A stretch of DNA of 41,599 bases from a virus (Duplodnaviria; Heunggongvirae; Uroviricota; Caudoviricetes): the IMG/VR virus record IMGVR_UViG_2740892231_000012; one strand, 5' to 3'. The translations under genes and the position numbers were made by a program. Below, piece by piece: positions 1 to 30,376 of the stretch; within the stretch, counting starts at the first letter, position 1; each line of letters starts with the position of its first letter. The notes under the pieces were generated by a model, which was not told where the DNA came from, did no database searches, and saw only the letters and a list, made by a program, of their open reading frames with translations.

Positions 1-285
1 ATGATTATCAATAACGTCAAACTGGTGCTGGAAAACGAAGTGGTACACGGTTCGCTGGAGGTGCAGGATGGCGAAATCCGCGCCTTTGCCGAAAGCCAGA
101 GCCGCCTGCCAGAAGCGATGGACGGCGAAGGTGGCTGGCTACTACCCGGCCTGATTGAGCTGCATACCGACAACCTCGATAAATTCTTCACCCCGCGCCC
201 GAAAGTCGACTGGCCCGCCCATTCGGCGATGAGCAGCCACGACGCGCTGATGGTGGCAAGCGGCATCACCACCGTGCTGGTATAG
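1..285 (+). pseudogene. phnM: 5' fragment (94 aa) of a phnM-like gene (phosphonate C-P lyase pathway), ending at a premature stop at the prophage junction
   Basis: Translation MIINNVKLVLENEVV...SGITTVL matches my recollection of the E. coli PhnM N-terminus (about 378 aa in full). The reading frame stops at 283-285, immediately before AT-rich phage-end sequence. Confidence 0.6.
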
Positions 286-408
286 CGCGGCGATTTTTTT
301 GATACCGATTTGCATTTCATTTGATACCGCTGAAAAACGCCGATACGCAACTTATTTGATACTAAATCGGCGCTTTTCTTTTGGGTTTTAGAATGAGTTT
401 TTAAGCGT

Positions 409-1146
409 TCACTCACTCTCTTTTAAACCAGTTTTAACTGTTTGTGGTTTTGGGTAAGGCTGGACTTTGAATAGCTTTGTGTTGAGGCGTTTTCTGGCCC
501 TCTTGTTCAGAAACCGGATGTAACGAAACTGACGGAATTTATGAACACTGGCTCTGTCGATATTAGCCCTCAGATGTTCACCTCGCTGTCCGCCTCGTTT
601 AATGGCATTCCTGCAAATCTCGTGATACCACTCGCCATCAAGTTCATAGAATGTTGATTCGTGGCTGCCTACATAATCAAAATTGCTTGCCTGATACACG
701 ACACCAAGACAGCCACAACGCTCATCTGCAAACGACTGAACCCACTGTACCTGCGGATAAAGCTGCCTGATTAGCTTGAGCGCGTAACTGATTGCCCTTG
801 ATTCGGAGTTTCTCGGCATACAGTCATGCAGCCATAACCGGTTAAGCTCCATATATTCACGGTTCCGCGTGCCCGTTACGACGCGTGCACCACTGTTTGG
901 ATTAAGGGCATAGCCCCATTGCATTACGCCAACCAGCTCCCGTTCTGAAAATATGCCCAGATGAAGGTAGGAGTTATTTACGAAACGGTGGCTGTAATGT
1001 TTATTGACGATGACCAGTCTGGCCAGCCAGCAACTTATTGTCTCAACCCGCAACTCACGGGAGCCATAACCAACGATATTGTCGTTATAGCGAATAAGTT
1101 CAGGCGTGCTGATGATACGGGATGTGACTTGCTTTCTGTTCCCCAC
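409..1146 (-). CDS. mom: Mom-like DNA modification protein
   Basis: 245-aa ORF that is the last gene before the phage end and overlaps the 3' end of a Com-like zinc-finger ORF, as in the Mu com-mom operon. The true start may lie downstream of 1146. Confidence 0.65.
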
Positions 1147-1300
1147 GACAGGATTTCCTTGTGTATGTGGGGTGCTCTGTGGCGCTCGGAGATGTGATTT
1201 GATTGAGGGTTTTACAGCGCGGACATTTTACTTCCAGATAACTGAAACTGGCCCGTGCCAGTAGCTTATTGCAGTGTCGGCACCGTATGTTTCGATACAT
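1100..1300 (-). CDS. com: Com-like zinc-finger translational activator of mom
   Basis: Contains [10 protein letters not shown]...VKCPRCKTL, two CxxC pairs as in Mu Com. Internal ATG at 1300 has an AGGAGG 9 nt upstream; the longer ORF reaching 1345 is probably not translated. Overlaps the mom start. Confidence 0.7.
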
Positions 1301-1342
1301 GGCCGCATAACCTCCTGCTTTGTTGTTGATGCCTTTCTCATG

Positions 1343-1490
1343 CAATCGATCGACAAAAACGATCGATTCGATTTGTTTAATTGATACAACAAATAGATTG
1401 AAAAGTCATCAACAATGATTCAGGGAGGTGATTATTTACTTAAAGAAAACGAAGAGTTAGCGAGTGAAAACGATCATAAAATGATCATTT
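1343..1490 (-). promoter_or_regulatory. GATC-rich region upstream of com-mom, candidate Dam-methylation-sensitive mom promoter region
   Basis: Several GATC sites clustered just upstream of com (in CGATCGAC and ACGATCGATT near 1345-1365, and CGATCAT and ATGATCAT near 1470-1490). In Mu, the mom promoter is controlled by Dam methylation of upstream GATC sites. Confidence 0.4.
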
Positions 1491-1573
1491 TATTGACTTT
1501 TTATCCAGTGAAGGTAGGATCGCGCGTATATGTAGTATGTTTCAAATCAACAGGATACTACATAAAAGGGAAA

Positions 1574-1612
1574 CCCAGCATAGCTGGAACTATGCTGGGT
1601 CAATCTGTAAAA
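1574..1612 (-). terminator. Candidate rho-independent terminator for leftward transcripts (perfect 10-bp inverted repeat followed by a T-rich run on the minus strand)
   Basis: CCCAGCATAG-ctggaa-CTATGCTGGG at 1577-1602. On the minus strand the stem is followed by TTTCCCTTTTAT. Confidence 0.4.
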
Positions 1613-1707
1613 ACTTGCATCAATGCTTTACTTCGAGCTCGTGGCGTATCCTATGATATTCCCCGGTCTCCTGTAAAGCAGAGATGCATAAAAAGGAGAT
1701 CTTTATC

Positions 1708-1878
1708 ATGGATAAAGAGCCTGTTTGCCCTGCCTGTAAGACTCCCTTACAGCTCATCTATCGCCGTTCTCGATCTCAAAATGGCAAGACATACAAACCA
1801 AAAAATGCTTCCTGTTTCAGGATGCTGATATGTCCTGCCTGTTCTCCCCGGAGGGAAAATACACAAAACGTGCATTAA
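1708..1878 (+). CDS. Small hypothetical zinc-ribbon protein (56 aa, CPAC...CPAC)
   Basis: ATG at 1708 is preceded by AAGGAG at good spacing. Two CPAC motifs. It is the only plus-strand ORF inside the cargo block. No homology recognised. Confidence 0.35.
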   Translation: MDKEPVCPACKTPLQLIYRRSRSQNGKTYKPKNASCFRMLICPACSPRRENTQNVH

Positions 1879-1916
1879 CAAATTCACCCGGCAGGGAAAC
1901 CTGCCGGTCGGTATTG

Positions 1917-2162
1917 TTACATCATAGTACCGTCAGTTCCGGGCTGAACCGGCTCTGGTTGCTCTACGGCTTGAGGCTCATTCTCCGTGCTGTTTTCAGC
2001 CGGAGAATGGCCAACCATTCGGGCCAGCACTTCATCAACATATGCGTCGATTTGTGCCTCAAAATCCTTGCGAACCTGCGCCTTCAGCACGCGGTTCACT
2101 TCTTCAGAATAAAGTGCCTGTTTGACAAGCTCTTCAGTAACCGTGCCTTTAATCTCTGGCAT
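1917..2162 (-). CDS. Hypothetical protein (81 aa, acidic and Pro-rich C-terminus)
   Basis: ORF co-oriented with the esterase, with GGAGAA ahead of the ATG. No homology recognised. Confidence 0.4.
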   Translation of the reverse strand: MPEIKGTVTEELVKQALYSEEVNRVLKAQVRKDFEAQIDAYVDEVLARMVGHSPAENSTENEPQAVEQPEPVQPGTDGTMM

Positions 2163-2197
2163 GAATATTCTCCTTTTGCAGGTATATTGCCCCGTTA

Positions 2198-2380
2198 TCA
2201 GAGCGGGGTCGGGTCGTTTGGGGATGACGGTGCCTGTGCTGTTTTACTGAGTTTTTCAGCTGCCGCATCATCAATTTTACGGCGAATATAATTTCTGATG
2301 ACCTTATAACCGCCGCTCACCAGATATAACGCACTGACCACTGCGCAGAAATAAAGCAGCATTGTATGAACGAATGTCAT
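2198..2380 (-). CDS. Hypothetical small membrane protein (60 aa, one predicted TM helix)
   Basis: Hydrophobic N-terminal segment LLYFCAVVSALYLVSGG followed by a basic stretch. Co-oriented with the esterase. Confidence 0.35.
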   Translation of the reverse strand: MTFVHTMLLYFCAVVSALYLVSGGYKVIRNYIRRKIDDAAAEKLSKTAQAPSSPNDPTPL

Positions 2381-2526
2381 ATAACCTTACCTTTGATATT
2401 GACTACATAATTCGTTATCGGGTAAAAACATCGAAGCGACTGATAACCACTCCTTCGGGAGTATTTTTATTTTCCTTTATGGGTTAGGTAGCTCCCGCCA
2501 GCCATATCATGACCGGCGGGATTTTT

Positions 2527-4566
2527 TTATTCTGTTACCGCTTTTTTCACTTCCACCACAATGCTGTCAATCAGCACCGGGTAAGTTGCATTTTTTGTGA
2601 TATCCGTTACGCGGAGTTTGTCCACCGGGAAAGTTCCTACTGGTGACTGCGTCAGGGTAAACGCGGCACCATCCTGACCATCAATAACCGGAATAACCTG
2701 AAGGCTGTTATTTCCTGCAAAACGGAAGGCCAGCGTATGCCATTCATTATCAAATGCACCAAAGGTTCCCAGTTTCTGGTTATTTGTTGCCACTTTTGCA
2801 TTGTGGTACATCACATTCAGGTCTTTTGCGTCTGTCTGGATGTAGAACGATGCCAGCAGATTATTCCCTGCATCCCCTGTCAGGGTGACACCCTGCGGCA
2901 GAGAGGAAACCGGCCAGTAAAGCGCCATGACATACTGGTTTGCCACCAGGTCGCCCGGTACTTTAAAACGACAACTGATTAAACCACCATTTTTCAGCAG
3001 TTCAGCACCAGTACCGGCATCATGATCCAGATACCAGGATGATTTACCTGTTTCCTTGGTCAGTTTCATTGCCTTACCACCTGTGCCTCCTGCATCACTG
3101 ATAATTTCAGCTTTACCGCCAGCCGGCTCCCAGCCCTGGGCTTTCAGATTTCCTTCTGACTCACTGACACGGTAAGACAGCAGTGTTGTGGTTACTGCTT
3201 CAGTTTCTGAAGGTGACGGCACTGGTGCTTCAGTTTCAGAAGATGGAACATCGGCTTTTACTGTGGTTCGCCCCGCATGAGTCAGAACTGCCGTGGCCAG
3301 ACGGTCGGAAATAATCCCACGACGTGCCCATGAACTGAAATGGCTGGCCCGGTCCGTAGATGTCCAGGTGGCGGCACTGTTACGCCACGTTGAGCCGTAA
3401 TAACCAATGGATTCAATATCCGGGTCTTCTGCCGGATTGTTGGTGGGTACATTCGCGCCATTTTCATCTGTCATTAATGGGACGAAATGAATGTTTTTAT
3501 CTGTTTTATTTTTGTAGCCGTCATAGATTGCCTGGTATGCCTGTTCGTTTTTCTGTTTCCAGAAATACGTGGTATCACCACAAATCCACGGAACGCCAGC
3601 AGCACTGCCACCGGTACACTGTTCCGCCTGTTCAGCCAGGTCTGCGCGGAATTTTTCCACCATCGCCAGAAACAGCGCAGAATGCTCCGTCGGCTTCGCA
3701 TCAATATCAAACTCGCCCTGCATCCACACCACAGCAAGCAGGCGGTTTTTCGGGTTCTTCGCCAGTGCCGCTTTTGTCCGGCTGATTAAGTCCTTATACA
3801 GCGGCTTATCCACACCCCAGCGGGCTGAGTCCTCTGAAGCACCCGTGCTGTCACTGTACGTGCCGTCAGCACCCACCGTGAATGCAGAACCACCACGGCA
3901 GCAGGGAACCAGCAGAATCCCCGCATCTGCCGGAATAAACGGCAGCAGTTTTTTGGCAATGTGAAGCCCCTGACCCACGGTGCCATATTGCCCTTTAGCC
4001 ACATCCGCTTTCGGGTGATTTTTTCCACTCATATCCTGCACATCATGCAGACAGTGGTCGGCCAGAATGATGTCGTTATACTGACAGGCTTTACCTCCCG
4101 GCGTGACTGTACTGCGACGGGCTAACTGCATAATACGCGGTTCGGGGCGGTCATATGTCTCCGGCAGTGGCAGACCTTCACCGTAAGCCATACCGTTTGA
4201 CTGACCAGCAAGAACCACCACGTAATACCAGGAAGGGGAGCTGGAAGCAGTTTCATTTCCTGACGGACGGGTATGTGTTTCAGCATTATCCCAGTCTGAC
4301 GGTTCAGCAGTACCGGCAACATCAGCACTTAACGGAATGACCGCACCAATACCCGCTCCGGTAATTTCCACACTCGGATCACCGGATACTGGCCTTACCC
4401 ACAGGCAATCCCGGGTATTAAAACTGATGAGACAGTCAGCAAATGTCATTCCTCCTTTTGTTTCGGCCGGAGGAAAGGGAGCCTCAAGAAATGCCGCTGT
4501 ACCACCGGAAACTTTAACAGTAAAGTTTCCGGGCATTGATGATAGTTGAACCCATTTGGACGTCAT
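2527..4566 (-). CDS. Putative carbohydrate esterase, sialate O-acetylesterase (SASA/DUF303) family, resembling prophage NanS-p; cargo gene
   Basis: 679-aa ORF with VVVLAGQSNGMAYGEG, which matches the GQSN catalytic-serine motif of SASA-family SGNH esterases. Long C-terminal domain looks like a carbohydrate-binding module. Sits between gin and com, where Mu has no gene. Confidence 0.6.
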   Translation of the reverse strand: MTSKWVQLSSMPGNFTVKVSGGTAAFLEAPFPPAETKGGMTFADCLISFNTRDCLWVRPVSGDPSVEITGAGIGAVIPLSADVAGTAEPSDWDNAETHTRPSGNETASSSPSWYYVVVLAGQSNGMAYGEGLPLPETYDRPEPRIMQLARRSTVTPGGKACQYNDIILADHCLHDVQDMSGKNHPKADVAKGQYGTVGQGLHIAKKLLPFIPADAGILLVPCCRGGSAFTVGADGTYSDSTGASEDSARWGVDKPLYKDLISRTKAALAKNPKNRLLAVVWMQGEFDIDAKPTEHSALFLAMVEKFRADLAEQAEQCTGGSAAGVPWICGDTTYFWKQKNEQAYQAIYDGYKNKTDKNIHFVPLMTDENGANVPTNNPAEDPDIESIGYYGSTWRNSAATWTSTDRASHFSSWARRGIISDRLATAVLTHAGRTTVKADVPSSETEAPVPSPSETEAVTTTLLSYRVSESEGNLKAQGWEPAGGKAEIISDAGGTGGKAMKLTKETGKSSWYLDHDAGTGAELLKNGGLISCRFKVPGDLVANQYVMALYWPVSSLPQGVTLTGDAGNNLLASFYIQTDAKDLNVMYHNAKVATNNQKLGTFGAFDNEWHTLAFRFAGNNSLQVIPVIDGQDGAAFTLTQSPVGTFPVDKLRVTDITKNATYPVLIDSIVVEVKKAVTE

Positions 4567-6158: not shown

Positions 6159-6810
6159 ATGCAACTGATTAATGTCAAACGATATTACCCGAAAGACAAA
6201 CCCTATGGTGAGGATGTTCAGTATTTCCAGAGTGAGGACGGAAGGGATTTTTATGAATCTATCCCGCTTTTTACAAAGAAATACAAACTCTGTATTTCGC
6301 CTGTAACGGGTATTATCTGCTCTGTTGCTGAAGATGTCTCTGCTTTATATCCGGCAGGTTTTACTGTTGTTGAAGTGGACGAACTGCCGGAAGGTGTGAA
6401 TATTGACGGTAACTGGCAGTTTTCTGATGGCCTGATATCAAAGGTGCCGGTAAACTGGAAGACGGTTGCTGAAAAGCGCCGCTCATCGCTGCTCCAGGAA
6501 GCCAACGAAACTGTGGATGACTGGAAAACGGAATTAAAACTGGACATGATTAGCGATGAAAATAAATTACAGCTGACGCGCTGGATGGCGTATATCCGNN
6601 NNNNNNNNTCGCTCATCGCTGCTCCAGGAAGCCAACGAAACCGTGGATGACTGGAAAACAGAATTAAAACTGGACATGATTAGCGATGAAAATAAATTAC
6701 AGCTGACGCGCTGGATGGCGTATATCCGACAGCTTAAAGAAATGCACCTTAATGATATTGCCAGTGAGGGGCATTACCAGGCGATTCCCTGGCCGGAAAA
6801 ACCGGAATAA
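6159..6810 (+). CDS. Tail-fibre assembly protein (U/Tfa family); includes N10 gap at 6599-6608 and duplicated flank
   Basis: Similar to Mu U: ...GIICSVAEDVSA..., ...FTVVEVDELPEG..., and C-terminal ...MISDENKLQLTRWMAYIRQLKEM...IPWPEKPE. Confidence 0.75.
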
Positions 6811-6844
6811 TTCAGAGGGTGCATTCAGCACCCTTTTCTGTGGT

Positions 6845-7756
6845 TTACACTGAACTTACCGTTCTCCAGGCATTATTAATATAAATCTGAACCGGGCGAT
6901 AATAGACCCCACCGATATTGTCCGCAGACCGGGAGCCGGTTTCCTGCACGTTAATACCGGAAAGCATACAACCGGAAGGTGCGCTGTAATTCCATGACAT
7001 TTCATTGCCTCCGGGTGAATGATAGCTCTGTGCTCCAAGCTGAACATTCTGTACATACCGGCCATCTGCGGTTGACTGCGTCATTCCTGACGTGATGTTG
7101 ATATCCAGCGTTCCGTCAAAAGGAACACCATTAATATTTCTTGGGGTGGCGAGTCTGTTTGCTGCCACGGCGGTTCCACCCGATGGCAGGGCATCAGCAG
7201 CCTTATTTACCGTTTCCCGTAAACCGACGTTATCGATAAAAGCGCCTTTATCCGGAATGTCTGCGCCGTTCTGCTCCCTGCGCAGGTAACGGTTATCACC
7301 TTCGCTTTTGCTGTAAACATCCAGATTATTACGGGCGGTTCCCGCATTCTCCAGGTCGGCAAGGTTCTGATCCTTCGCCAGAGCATTAACGTCACCGGGA
7401 CCAAGACTGTTTTTTGTGGCAAGCGCCCCAAGACCAAGATAACCACGGGCAAGACGCTGGGCTTCCGCACCGGCATCAGCAATTTCTTTCAGGTTGTTTT
7501 TCCGGGAAAAGGCATTCGCAGCGATAATGGCTTTAATGGACAGCGTAAGCTGGTTTAACTGCGCCTTATCCGGCTGAATACTGGCTTCAGCCAGAATATT
7601 CAGCAGTTCGGCCTGGAGAATATTCAGCCAGTCCTGACCAATCCAGCTGATACCTTTTTGTCCGTCACCTTCGGTAAACCAGGTGGTGGTATTACTCTGC
7701 GCCGGAGCCAGTTCAGGCATATTCGCCACGCCGGAATTATTATCAACATGGAACAT
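6845..7756 (-). CDS. Tail fibre protein S (constant part plus currently expressed variable C-terminus)
   Basis: Start MFHVDNNSGV uses an ATG overlapping the stop of the upstream baseplate gene (TAATG), preceded by GAGGAG. Contains the gix-like site at the constant/variable junction. Confidence 0.75.
   Translation of the reverse strand: MFHVDNNSGVANMPELAPAQSNTTTWFTEGDGQKGISWIGQDWLNILQAELLNILAEASIQPDKAQLNQLTLSIKAIIAANAFSRKNNLKEIADAGAEAQRLARGYLGLGALATKNSLGPGDVNALAKDQNLADLENAGTARNNLDVYSKSEGDNRYLRREQNGADIPDKGAFIDNVGLRETVNKAADALPSGGTAVAANRLATPRNINGVPFDGTLDINITSGMTQSTADGRYVQNVQLGAQSYHSPGGNEMSWNYSAPSGCMLSGINVQETGSRSADNIGGVYYRPVQIYINNAWRTVSSV
7206..7232. promoter_or_regulatory. gix-like recombination site inside the S coding sequence, left boundary of the invertible segment
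   Basis: TTACCGTTTCCCGTAAACCGACGTT is the inverted counterpart of the 5666-5692 site. Confidence 0.6.
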
Positions 7757-21313: not shown

Positions 21314-21489
21314 TCCGGCAGCATAAGCCGGGAATTTTCAGGGCGGGTTTTGCGGGATTTCAGGAAGTGCTTCCAGGGGAAAAATACAAAGGCGCTTCAC
21401 GCAGATTTTAAAGCCCGTTAAATACAGGTTAGAAAATCACGACACGCGCCTGAAGGGGGTAAGGTAATGCATTTGCATACCTTAAACAA
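21314..21489. other. Intergenic region between G-like and I-like genes; candidate Mu-type central strong gyrase site
   Basis: Position only: Mu carries its strong gyrase-binding site in the G-I intergenic region near the genome centre, and this 176-bp AT-rich spacer is in the equivalent place. Confidence 0.3.
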
Positions 21490-28717: not shown

Positions 28718-29292
28718 CAGGAACAGGGGCAGAGGCCGCAGGCACTGCTGCCAGCGACCGGCGGACAACGCTCTGCTGCCCCTCGCTGTGCTGAATGTTC
28801 TGTTGTTTTTCATTCGTGGCCGCCTCACTGATTTGTGAAATGAGTTGCAGGGTGTGCTGCTGATTTGCCAGCACCTGACGCGCCTCATCCCGCTCACGCA
28901 CAAGCACCTGATTATTGTCTTCAAGGCGCTGCGTCTTCTGGTGCATTCCCCATACCACGGCAGCCAGCACGCTCATCACCCCCAGCGCCGCCATACAGCC
29001 TCCGGCAATCAGGGCCGGTAAGGGATTATTCACCGCAGCCACAGGACACCCCGTAACAGCAGTACCGCACACAGCAGCGCTATCATGAGCGGNNNNNNNN
29101 NNTAGCGGCAACCAGTACAGCGATAATCCCCAGCGCCGCCATGCACGCCCCGGCAATCAGGGCCGGTAAGGCATTATTCACCGCAGCCACAGGACACCCC
29201 GTAACAGCAGTACCGCACACAGCAGCGCTATCATGAGCGGTCGCCAGAAGCGGTTCAGACTTTCGGCAAGTCGTAGCGACATAACCATTCAT
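28644..29292 (-). CDS. i-spanin (inner-membrane, coiled-coil); start uncertain; includes N10 gap at 29093-29102 and duplicated flank
   Basis: TM segment LPALIAGGCMAALGVMSVLAAVVWG followed by Gln-rich helical region; immediately downstream of the endolysin. Confidence 0.55.
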
Positions 29293-29879
29293 CCGCCGAA
29301 CGGCGGGCCTCAAGGCCGGGGAGTTTCACCCCCTTTGAATAAATCCAGCGGATATACTGCTTACAGGACGCGGGCATCTGCCCGGCATTGATCAGGCGCA
29401 GAAGCGTGGAGTTGCGGAAGTTCGTTTCACCGGCCCAGAAGATCCACGAAGCCAGCGCCACAGTCTGACCACGGGTAAGCGGCACCTGAACACGCCGATC
29501 AATGGCCGCAAAGGCCCATTTCATGTCCTTNNNNNNNNNNAAAGTTCGTTTCACCGGCCCAGAAGATCCACGAAGCCAGCGCCACCGTCTGACCACGGGT
29601 AAGCGGCACCTGAACACGCCGATCAATGGCCGCAAAGGCCCATTTCATGTCCTTTTCCAGTAGTTCCAGGCATTCTTCATCTGTCAGGGTCATACCCGGT
29701 TTCACATCCGGGCCGGTATGGCCGTAACAGATGGTGGGTGTACCGGTGGGATCGATATACGTGGAGTTTTCTTTCCCTTCCCAGTAACCGGTGTAATGCG
29801 TGGCAATCGTGAACGTCCCGGCACCGGCCAGAACAAGGGCAATCAGCTTTTTACGCAGTGGTGCGGGGAGTTTTGGCAT
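29255..29879 (-). CDS. SAR endolysin (lysozyme-like); includes N10 gap at 29530-29539 and duplicated flank
   Basis: N-terminal signal-anchor-release segment LIALVLAGAGTFTIATHY, then TICYGHTGPD... and ...VPLTRGQTVALASWIFWAGETNF..., similar to Mu Lys. Confidence 0.8.
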
Positions 29880-29950
29880 TGTTACGCTGTCTCATGATGT
29901 TCTCTGAGTCAGCGTAACGGTGAAGGAAAGGCGGCAGGCTTTGCGGAATA

Positions 29951-30376
29951 TCAGAAAAGTGGCGGTTGCGTTCTTGCCAGATGCAGACGGCGCTGTTCGC
30001 GTATGACGGTATAAATCTGGGTTTCTGACATCCGGTAATGGCGGCGAAGGGATTCAATTTTCTCGCCCCGGTCCCAGCGCGAAAATATCTCATTGTTTCG
30101 CAGCTCGGCAAAGAGAGATTCCCCGACCGGCAGGTAATAACCCCGTCCGCCCATATAGGCTGCCTGAGCCGCAGCCACCTTGCGTGCCAGTTTACCGGCC
30201 AGTACCGGCTCAATCCCCTGACGCTGAAGTTCTGCGCCGGTGACTTCAACCAGTTCTGACAGGGTCCGCGGCCAGTTCTTTTTGAGAACATCATCAGGGA
30301 TGTCATCAAGGCGGTCGATAAGGGCGTGCAGTTGCTCACTGTCACCACCAAACATGCTCATCTGAGTTTCTGCCAT
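29951..30376 (-). CDS. Mor/C-family late transcription activator
   Basis: 141 aa, immediately upstream of the endolysin as for Mu C; helix-turn-helix-like C-terminal region. Confidence 0.7.
   Translation of the reverse strand: MAETQMSMFGGDSEQLHALIDRLDDIPDDVLKKNWPRTLSELVEVTGAELQRQGIEPVLAGKLARKVAAAQAAYMGGRGYYLPVGESLFAELRNNEIFSRWDRGEKIESLRRHYRMSETQIYTVIREQRRLHLARTQPPLF

Follow-up and report, generated by a model that had tools for sequence, protein, structure and literature searches.

The com–mom pair of phage Mu (Mup54/Mup55) occupies the right end of a transposable phage, with com overlapping the GTG start of mom, and the same arrangement is found in the window, the whole stretch of 41,599 nucleotides analyzed here. 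Mu Mom has a GNAT fold and moves glycine from Gly-tRNA(Gly) to the N6 of adenines in double-stranded DNA; rearrangement of this product yields N6-carbamoylmethyl-adenine, and the phage DNA then resists many restriction enzymes (PMC13219725). The Com recognition element consists of CC(N)2-3GAG within a hexaloop (PMC6483171). Homologues of Mom and its regulators have been reported at the corresponding position of Sp18 in E. coli O157 (PMC3299994), a predicted intact Mu-like prophage (PMC2669165). In FluMu (hin1523), Pnm1 (nma1821), Hia5 and Pseudomonas B3, a Com homologue and a putative target gate the modification gene at the mom position (PMC3299994); these published cases concern adenine methyltransferases, whereas the window has a true Mom and a sister variant of it a C5-cytosine methylase. 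Dam/OxyR switches carry GATCs inside the OxyR half-sites, in pairs 13 bp apart in the case of gtr, and OxyR and GATC methylation each block the other (PMC2909390).

The locus in the window is very probably the com–mom module of an Sp18-type Mu-like prophage, conferring adenine modification through a Com-gated Mom, with putative Dam/OxyR and C control of its transcription. Judging from the sequence, this prophage is inserted in E. coli phnM (Table 1), with the com–mom pair on the minus strand about 130 bp inside its right end. Bases 1–279 code for PhnM residues 1–93 (NF011981, E = 7.8e-57, profile positions 1–93 of 378), the phnM ORF meets a stop just within the phage DNA, and homology to a second phage copy begins at about 281 in the comparison with LC727881, a record of a Mu-like phage in which the insertion boundary and the target duplication are marked. 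The TTGATAC(C/T) repeats next to this junction are presumed to be transposase-binding end repeats. The earlier note on this DNA had described a Com-like ORF overlapping the start of a Mom-like ORF at the phage end, and both elements of that description are borne out, the location by the PhnM-coding sequence and the phage-shared sequence that follows it, and the overlap by two ORFs with Pfam matches to both families. The likeness to the Sp18-type prophages of O157 and other STEC is drawn from published descriptions; the copy in the window is the one inserted in phnM. The module as such is ordinary and already known: of 5,426 complete E. coli genomes, 233 carry one at least 95% identical to it, O157:H7 strains included, annotations of it already exist in about 200 E. 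coli genomes, and in RefSeq the two genes go by the names Mom family and Com family. NCBIfam models gave no match to Mom or Com, although RefSeq names both. The com–mom feature contains no N-runs.

Table 1. Coordinates of the com–mom module, its candidate control elements and associated features in the window
Feature	Position	Strand	Details
phnM, 5′ part; host gene interrupted by the prophage (insertion junction)	1–280	+	NCBIfam PhnM equivalog NF011981
Prophage right end with repeated TTGATAC(C/T) motifs	281–385		Nearly identical to the annotated phage end in LC727881
mom, 245-aa Mom-family GNAT enzyme (adenine N6-carbamoylmethylation of DNA, by homology), GTG start	409–1146	−	Pfam, PHROG, identity to Mu Mom
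com, 66-aa CCCC zinc-ribbon protein, translational activator by homology; 3′ end overlaps mom by 47 nt (1146–1100)	1100–1300	−	Pfam, PHROG, identity to Mu Com
Translation-inhibition hairpin; CCCCAC (1172–1167) pairs with GUGGGG (1146–1141), burying the mom GUG	1141–1172	−	RNA folds
Com target on the mRNA, GCGC[CACAGA]GCAC; CC-ACA-GAG, closing C-G pair, 6-nt loop	1172–1185	−	Same register as Mu GCCUGCGAGCAUCCCAC
Hypervariable segment (15 nt) of the com leader, lying between palindrome and SD	1329–1343	−	Six versions among 14 near-identical upstream regions
Perfect 9-bp inverted repeat AATCGATCG-N7-CGATCGATT with GATC 1348 and 1361, 13 bp apart; candidate OxyR dimer site	1344–1368		
Overlapping OxyR-consensus matches	1349–1416		13/20 at 1349–1385, 1358–1394 and 1362–1398; 14/20 at 1380–1416
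Candidate promoter B; ATGACT (1409–1404), 17 nt, TATCAA (1386–1381)	1381–1409	−	
Candidate promoter A; T-tract then TAAGTA (1442–1437)	1437–1450	−	Like Mu Pmom TTTTTTAAGAT
Plus-strand promoter TTGACT-16-TAGGAT	1493–1520	+	L055: TTGACT-16-TAAGAT; L056: TTGACG-16-TATAAT
Intrinsic terminator closing the preceding minus-strand transcription unit	1572–1601	−	13-bp stem then T-run
Mor/C-family late activator gene	29951–30376	−	Pfam Mor PF08765, E = 2.8e-32

The 245-aa protein that the earlier note had called Mom-like is clearly so. It shares 80% identity with Mu Mom in a gap-free alignment of 229 residues, covers all 202 positions of its Pfam family profile (PF25680, positions 1–202 of 202, E = 4.5e-77, 258.7 bits with the cut-off at 27.1), and matches PHROG 1384 (E = 9.5e-84) and the Mu Mom structure PDB 8BV8 (E = 1.3e-124). 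The gapless alignment to Mu Mom and chain 8BV8_A extends through the Mom-specific HTH-like insertion (Mu residues about 175–209). Four residues are essential for Mu Mom activity (R111, S124, D149 and R151) and five are important (W48, H58, Y59, Y159 and W181) (PMC13219725), and all nine are kept in the window as R103, S116, D141, R143, W40, H50, Y51, Y151 and W173. The pN/pS of mom is 0.06–0.15, which indicates purifying selection, and is 0.06–0.09 in comparisons with variants diverged at 15% of synonymous sites. By homology, the window Mom would transfer glycine from Gly-tRNA(Gly) to adenine N6, yielding N6-carbamoylmethyl-adenine and restriction-resistant phage DNA, and mom would thus protect the adenines of the phage DNA from restriction enzymes. 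Com aligned with its Mu counterpart as the earlier note had proposed, with 47% identity and the same four cysteines (C7, C10, C26 and C29, in the form CxxC...CxxC), and matched Pfam Zn_ribbon_Com (PF10122, E = 3.3e-12, 46.1 bits with the cut-off at 22.9) and PHROG 13819, "gpCom control of modification" (E = 5e-13). The open com frame spans 1100–1345, and the start is likely the ATG at 1300, 10 nt after the SD AGGAGG (1316–1311).

At the mom start, where the earlier note had suggested looking for the Com-binding stem-loop, both the Com-type motif and a start-sequestering hairpin are present. The GCC-ACA-GAGCAC motif lies directly 5′ of the CCCCAC...GUGGGG hairpin, in the register seen in Mu; its stem comprises 2 bp plus 1 in the window against 4 bp in Mu and is thus weaker here. 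RNA folds of the window, Mu and LC727881 agreed on this inhibitory hairpin, and the mom SD AAGGA (1160–1156) sits in its loop. Across 21 lineages, the arm sequences of the hairpin vary, complementarity is kept, and the start codon or the SD is always covered. An Rfam scan of 250–2500 returned nothing meaningful.

In ten genomes and in LC727881, a C5-cytosine methylase replaces mom behind the same com and translational gate; strain 90-3040 (NZ_CP027459) is one carrier of this variant. The com gene, the hairpin and the GTG start are all kept when mom is swapped in this way, and the retention of the GTG and the hairpin across the swap marks them as a functional gate and confirms the mom start codon. 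Our literature search for a module of com plus a cytosine methylase found nothing specific.

Upstream of com, the comparison with Mu concerns the GATC sites. GATC is under-represented over the whole window (123 observed versus 159 expected) and does not occur in 1–1347; five sites then follow at 1348, 1361, 1472, 1483 and 1518, within 221 nt upstream of com, forming the densest 180-bp GATC stretch of the window, with five sites against a maximum of four in clusters elsewhere. This count by itself is only mildly unusual, and it is the arrangement and the conservation of the sites that carry the argument. The first two form the inverted repeat that we regard as a candidate OxyR dimer site, the occupancy of which would depend on Dam methylation. 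An element of the form CGATCG-N7-NGATCGAT, with its GATCs 13 bp apart, lies upstream of com in both Mu and the window, and the 13-bp-spaced pair is also present in most enterobacterial relatives and absent in most non-enterobacterial relatives; the OxyR half-sites of P22 gtr have the same GATC spacing (PMC2909390). Among 14 sequence variants of the module, the palindrome is invariant in 13; one natural variant (L054) has lost the second GATC, and a 52-bp block surrounding the pair is almost invariant, with variation at the adjacent bases.

When the OxyR consensus, ATAGnTnnnAnCTAT-N7-same, was scanned over the whole 41.6-kb window (83,126 positions), eight of the ten best matches fell in 1349–1416, and the half-site 1349–1363 of one of these matches (1349–1385) lies in the palindrome carrying the GATC pair. 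The same scan on Mu ranked the known OxyR region first in its locus, with 13/20. The OxyR mapping suggested in the earlier note thus places the GATC pair in a stretch that matches the consensus as well as the known site of Mu does. In local shuffles, the maximum score was reached in 1% and the match count in none of 5000. These matches are suggestive of OxyR binding rather than proof of it, because a degenerate, AT-rich consensus is matched here to a region of 67% A+T.

The layout around this element differs from that of Mu. In Mu, three GATCs, at about −88, −70 and −57, lie upstream of the C box and the promoter, an arrangement that the window does not share, its OxyR-type element having two. 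The pair lies 51 and 64 nt from the com ATG, compared with 78 and 91 nt in Mu; being 27 bp nearer com, it leaves no room for the promoter layout of Mu, and the Mu C box, −35 ACCACA and −10 TAAGAT cannot follow the GATC element. The com SD, at −16 to −11 from the ATG, leaves no space for a C box, a −10 and a leader beside the pair. A Mu-like promoter downstream of the pair was considered and rejected, since the pair and the SD are only 32 nt apart and this interval holds no −10-like hexamer with A2 and T6. The earlier proposal that the GATC sites match those of Mu mom control accordingly holds for the element itself (1348 and 1361) and fails for its position relative to the promoter, the third upstream GATC of Mu being missing; it also fails for the sites at 1472, 1483 and 1518, which surround another promoter.

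It is possible, though in our judgment unlikely, that the genes are com and mom and that the GATC palindrome is nevertheless no OxyR/Dam switch, transcription being controlled by the phage late activator only. The palindrome could then be the operator of another dimeric regulator, a SeqA/Dam sequestration site, or a leader or opposite-strand hairpin. A terminator scan indeed picks out 1344–1368 as a hairpin on the plus strand with a T-rich run after it, but there is no upstream plus-strand gene that requires a terminator at this position. By itself, the palindrome scores 7/10 per half-site, with 6–7/10 for the second half-site, whereas the clustering of OxyR matches around it goes far beyond that of local-composition shuffles. 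The displacement of the element relative to com, compared with Mu, would also fit such an alternative, and D108-type relatives have two GATCs 18 bp apart without the 13-bp pair, so that the 13-bp arrangement is not universal; this spacing is, however, that of the proven gtr OxyR half-sites, and the Mu sequence CGATCG-N7-(C/A)GATCGAT is part of an established OxyR site and the top match in our scan. We therefore prefer the reading of the palindrome as a Dam/OxyR element, and we infer that com–mom depends on Dam and OxyR.

An intrinsic terminator closes the transcription unit that precedes com, its stem being preserved in the variant L055 through compensatory changes, and com–mom therefore needs its own promoter. 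A sigma-70 scan of the minus strand over 1300–1570 found no promoter. Two candidates can be proposed, both with a poor −10, that of promoter B lacking a T in the last position. At the position of promoter A, aligned relatives have TAAAAT (L053 and L031) or TATGTA (L055), and in the regions upstream of the lys-like and I-like operons, too, −10-like hexamers come after a TTTTCT tract. The hexamers of promoter B are essentially invariant in the 14 variants (ATGACT/ATGACA and TATCAA) and its spacer varies; the close homology with L053 and L031 drops off just upstream of it. Under either candidate, the OxyR-type sites would overlap or follow the transcription start, as OxyR(BC) of gtr overlaps its promoter and unlike those of Mu. 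In agn43 as well, the OxyR site overlaps or follows the transcription start, and the window would resemble this arrangement more than it resembles that of Mu. E. coli agn43, Salmonella/P22 gtr and Salmonella opvAB are the Dam/OxyR epigenetic switches to which the element may be likened; unlike these, the window has one GATC pair only and no second, alternative GATC-bearing site, and there is hence no evidence for an ON/OFF toggle.

The activator of com–mom transcription is likely the 141-aa Mor/C-family protein encoded in the window, which is 39% identical to Mu C and 27% identical to Mu Mor. Its gene lies directly upstream of the lysozyme gene, just as the C gene adjoins a lysis gene in Mu. 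The C-dependent late promoters of Mu (Plys, PI, PP, Pmom) show a dyad-symmetric C box centred near −43.5, a T-tract, a recognizable −10 and a poor −35. No common C-box dyad could be defined from the regions upstream of com, the lys-like operon (29880–29960) and the I-like operon (21314–21489), which share only the TTTTCT tract before −10-like hexamers; their palindromes differ in sequence and register.

These comparisons suggest a control scheme in several steps. The C homologue would switch on the weak com–mom promoter late in lytic growth, which is the weakest step of the scheme. Dam and OxyR would gate transcription, OxyR binding the unmethylated GATC-pair palindrome and the half-sites in 1349–1416 and acting as a repressor, and full methylation of the GATCs would prevent this binding. 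The element would act at or downstream of the promoter (candidate A or B), unlike that of Mu, which lies upstream of the C box. On the mRNA, the mom GUG is locked in the CCCCAC/GUGGGG hairpin, as seen by sequence and folding, and this would block translation as in Mu. By analogy with Mu, Com made from the same mRNA would bind the CC-ACA-GAG hexaloop and open the hairpin, and Mom would be made only after Com has accumulated.

Hundreds of E. coli genomes contain this textbook anti-restriction system, already under its name, and the module matters little for discovery. It does lead to the prediction that DNA packaged by this prophage carries N6-carbamoylmethyl-adenine, a modification that would help the phage and transduced DNA past restriction barriers among STEC and other E. 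coli. The joint proposal that the Dam/OxyR element of Sp18-type prophages has shifted from upstream of the promoter, as in Mu, to overlapping or downstream of the transcription start and that the com gate is portable appears doubtful to us as a whole. If it were true, a heritable switch dependent on methylation state, and not only a late-gene check, could govern mom or the cytosine methylase that replaces it, and com, the hairpin and the GTG would constitute a portable gate behind which recombination, about 15 nt past the start codon, swaps one toxic modification gene for another. Both the displacement of the OxyR-type element and the exchange of mom for a cytosine methylase behind an unchanged com would provide natural variants for studying the layered control of a toxic gene and could interest specialists in phage regulation.

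The three outer GATCs (1472, 1483 and 1518) belong to a different context. Mu has the gin invertase gene upstream of its com–mom region; the window has instead the terminator, a divergent small zinc-ribbon gene and lambdoid-type DUF826/DUF1378 genes. The outer sites flank the conserved sigma-70 promoter of this small conserved gene, which is directed away from com. We consider it improbable that all five GATCs, including those of the 1472/1483 palindrome and the one at 1518, make up one extended Dam-sensitive mom control region, a reading to which the coordinates of the earlier note (up to 1490) would lead. If TAAGTA (1442–1437) is taken as the −10, GATC 1486–1483 lies exactly 44 nt upstream, which equals the distance from the third GATC of Mu to TAAGAT, and a perfect 18-bp palindrome, ATAAAATGATCATTTTAT, at 1476–1493 looks like a protein-binding site; this outer palindrome, however, has an 11-bp spacing that is not of the OxyR type and reaches no high consensus score. 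The outer GATCs, moreover, surround the plus-strand promoter, and the L053 and L031 variants, with a com–mom 97–98% identical to that of the window, nevertheless lack the whole outer stretch together with its GATCs. That the module is a silent relic, its promoter decayed in this lineage and mom no longer expressed from the prophage, is most improbable: no acceptable −10/−35 pair occurs from the terminator to com, and the good TATACT/TATAGT that L055–L057 have just after the GATC pair is lacking in the window, yet neither ORF is damaged, every catalytic residue is present and purifying selection is strong, the regulatory block is nearly invariant, and activator-dependent late promoters are expected to look poor, like Mu Pmom (PMC3378877).

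The 137-aa plus-strand ORF at 1415–1828, named "frameshifted hypothetical protein" in RefSeq and containing GATC 1472 and 1483, was rejected as non-coding; its substitutions relative to L055 are spread evenly across codon positions (21/16/17), and its frame is broken in relatives. The adjoining 56-aa ORF shows a third-position bias (19/14/31).

The earlier note had described a Com-like zinc-finger ORF overlapping the start of a Mom-like ORF at the phage end, and both the gene identities and the location are borne out. PHROGs profiles agree with the Pfam assignments of mom and com (listed in the table), the two genes overlap by 47 nt, and com most sensibly starts at ATG 1300, ten bases past AGGAGG, giving a product of 66 aa with CxxC motifs at residues 7-10 and 26-29. 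When aligned with Mu Mom, as had been proposed, the 245-aa protein was 80% identical over 229 residues without a gap; it also matches the Mu Mom crystal structure 8BV8 ('methylcarbamoylase mom', E=1.3e-124). Mom is a GNAT-fold enzyme that moves glycine from Gly-tRNA(Gly) onto adenine N6 in duplex DNA, forming an adduct that rearranges to N6-carbamoylmethyl-dA; in Mu Mom, R111, S124, D149 and R151 are essential and W48, H58, Y59, Y159 and W181 are important (PMC13219725, 2026). All nine residues are conserved in the Mom of the window. Compared with natural variants of this module, mom has a pN/pS of 0.06-0.15 and is therefore maintained by selection.

Features of the com-mom region and its surroundings
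Feature	Position	Strand	Remarks
mom ORF	1146..409	minus	GTG start, 245 aa; Pfam Mom, E=4.5e-77
com ORF	ends at 1100	minus	Zn_ribbon_Com, E=3.3e-12; overlaps mom
Candidate promoter A	1450..1437	minus	T-tract then TAAGTA; aligned TAAAAT in L053/L031, TATGTA in L055
Candidate promoter B	1409..1381	minus	ATGACT-17-TATCAA; hexamers essentially invariant, spacer variable
56-aa zinc-ribbon ORF	1708..1878	plus	CPAC...CPAC; divergent from com; strong SD
DUF826, DUF1378 and 679-aa DUF6645/phrog_143 protein	1917-4566	minus	directly upstream of com region

The first 279 bases of the window encode PhnM residues 1-93 (NCBIfam equivalog, E=7.8e-57), after which the phnM frame enters foreign DNA, and from ~281 the window matches the end annotated for a 'Bacteriophage Mu-like phage' that lies within an Stx phage (LC727881), which places com-mom at the phage end. 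Together with the Mu-type genes deeper in the window (GemA, a Mor/C-family activator and lysozyme, all on the minus strand), this identifies the window as a Mu-like prophage inserted in E. coli phnM and viewed from its right end. Where the window has the DUF826, DUF1378 and DUF6645 genes, Mu has the gin invertase and G segment; DUF826 and DUF1378 are typical of accessory regions of lambdoid phages. The window is a scaffold with fifteen gaps of exactly 10 N (between 4843 and 40036, e.g. 29093-29102 and 29531-29540), none of which lies inside the com-mom region. The flanks of these runs are duplicated, and the runs are unmerged scaffold joins that split genes artificially; for instance, there are two overlapping lysozyme ORFs (29255-29635 and 29499-29879), and GemA occurs twice.

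The com-mom finding is correct but already known, since RefSeq names a 'Mom family adenine methylcarbamoylation protein' and a 'Com family DNA-binding transcriptional regulator', and since Sp18, a Mu-like prophage of O157 Sakai, has Mom and regulators at the corresponding position (PMC3299994), a likeness drawn from the literature description of Sp18. The RefSeq name of Com is a misnomer; Com is an RNA-binding translational activator. Of 5,426 complete E. coli genomes, 233 have a module at least 95% identical to that of the window. The displaced OxyR-type element and the exchange of mom for a cytosine methylase, both described below, are modest comparative observations.

Mu Com binds a short hairpin directly 5' of a translation-inhibition structure whose stem holds the mom GUG, and it recognises CC(N)2-3GAG within a hexaloop that has a C-G closing pair (PMC6483171). 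The mRNA of the window reads GCGC[CACAGA]GCAC-CCCCAC-(20 nt including AAGGA)-GUGGGG, and that of Mu AUGC[CUGCGA]GCAU-CCCAC-(11 nt including GGAG)-GUGGG; RNA folding predicts the start-codon hairpin in both. The stem of the Com hairpin is weaker in the window than in Mu. Among 21 com-mom lineages retrieved from genomes and viral contigs, the arms vary (CCCAC/GUGGG, GCCAC/GUGGC, CUUCCU/AGGAAG, CCUCCA/UGGAGG, GCGCC/GGCGC, CGUCC/GGACG), yet complementarity is kept, and the start codon or Shine-Dalgarno sequence is covered in every lineage. LC727881 and 10 of the 5,426 E. coli genomes have a 350-aa C5-cytosine DNA methylase (PF00145, E=2e-42) instead of mom, with the phage end, com, com-upstream region, hairpin and GTG 95-100% identical to the window. 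The replacement extends from ~15 nt past the GTG to about position 385; the methylase gene (6160-7212 of LC727881) aligns to about 385-1131, and the recombination junctions fall ~15 nt inside the ORF and ~100 bp away from the phage end. This swap behind an unchanged com, hairpin and GTG fixes the mom start codon and indicates that the com/hairpin unit works as a module, a natural exchange that supports the predicted gate. Adenine methylases stand in mom's place behind com in FluMu, Pnm1 and B3 (PMC3299994). Homologues of mom with no detectable com upstream occur at loci L007, L010, L013, L016-L019, L023, L095, L097 and L104-L109; at L010, L095 and L097, a 13-bp GATC pair still immediately precedes mom.

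The GATC sites upstream of com had been taken to match the Dam-dependent control of Mu mom, a match that holds for the element around two of the five. No GATC lies in 1..1347; the five that follow, at 1348, 1361, 1472, 1483 and 1518, are narrowly the densest 180-bp cluster of the window (5 versus 4). The sites at 1348 and 1361 sit 13 bp apart in a perfect palindrome, AATCGATCG-N7-CGATCGATT (1344-1368), whose Mu counterpart, CGATCG-N7-AGATCGATT, comprises Mu's second and third GATCs; proven OxyR half-sites of P22 gtr likewise hold GATC pairs spaced 13 bp (PMC2909390). We scanned for the published OxyR consensus (ATAGnTnnnAnCTAT, a 7-nt gap and a repeat, scored out of 20). Eight of the ten best matches of the whole window, scoring 13-14, fall within 1349-1416, and the identical scan ranks Mu's known OxyR region first in the Mu locus (13 of 20). 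When the local 86 bp were shuffled, 1% of trials reached the maximum score, and none of 5000 reached the number of high-scoring registers. In most enterobacterial lineages, the best OxyR-type match within 330 nt upstream of com falls on the GATC cluster, and most of the distant loci outside the enterobacteria (in marine and metagenome-assembled genomes) lack a GATC cluster beside com. The 52-bp block TATTTGTTGTATCAATTAAACAAATCGAATCGATCGTTTTTGTCGATCGATT is nearly invariant across 14 sequence variants of the window-type module. The proximal pair, we conclude, belongs to a constrained, probably Dam-sensitive, OxyR-type element at which OxyR probably binds. The 15-nt stretch that comes after the 52-bp block, between the palindrome and the com SD (1329-1343, minus strand), has six versions among 14 near-identical upstream regions, and one variant also carries a 6-nt CAACAA expansion.

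The likeness to Mu holds for these consensus sites but not for the distance of the GATC pair to com. The com ATG of Mu is preceded, at 109, 91 and 78 nt, by three GATCs, after which come the C box (TTATGCCCCAATAA), a -35 ACCACA, a 19-bp spacer that includes a T6 run, and a -10 TAAGAT (PMC2582627). In the window the pair lies 64 and 51 nt from the ATG with the SD at -16..-11, so that the Mu layout cannot fit. A strong terminator upstream (1601..1572), preserved by compensatory changes in the related locus L055, means that com-mom needs its own promoter. Either candidate in the table would put the OxyR-type sites across or downstream of the start site; the related loci L055-L057, unlike the window, have a good TATACT/TATAGT seven bases past the GATC pair. 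The C homologue of the window is 39% identical to Mu C, and no recognition sequence for it was definable from the com-upstream, lys-like and I-like regions. The promoter/activator step is the weakest part of the proposed mechanism. A near-palindrome, AAGGTATGCAAATGCATTACCTT (21461-21483, minus strand), followed by TTTTCT-AACCT in the 176-bp gap before a putative head protease/scaffold gene, may serve this phage as a late-promoter operator.

The GATCs at 1472, 1483 and 1518 surround a plus-strand sigma-70 promoter, TTGACT-16-TAGGAT (1493-1520), that points to the 56-aa zinc-ribbon ORF ~180 nt downstream. This promoter is kept in relatives with diverged spacers (TTGACT-16-TAAGAT in L055, TTGACG-16-TATAAT in L056), and the ORF is 46% identical there, with substitutions biased to the third codon position; no family assignment was found for its product. 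L053 and L031, whose com-mom is 97-98% identical to the window, lack the whole stretch bearing the distal GATCs. On these comparisons, evidence would be needed before the three are assigned to mom control. An 18-bp perfect palindrome, ATAAAATGATCATTTTAT (1476-1493), centred on GATC 1483-1486, abuts the -35 and overlaps a second palindrome, GATCAT-AAA-ATGATC; the former is absent from L055, L053 and L031. A 137-aa plus-strand ORF (1415-1828), which RefSeq annotates together with the following ORF as one 'frameshifted hypothetical protein', has no codon-position bias, is broken in relatives and is unlikely to be a gene. A conserved promoter-like TTTACA-18-TAGGAT (1677..1648, minus strand) precedes the hairpin terminator by ~40 nt, and the two together (1677..1562) could produce a ~75-nt sRNA that is antisense to the zinc-ribbon gene's 5' UTR; this region has no Rfam match, and its conservation is far above that of its flanks.
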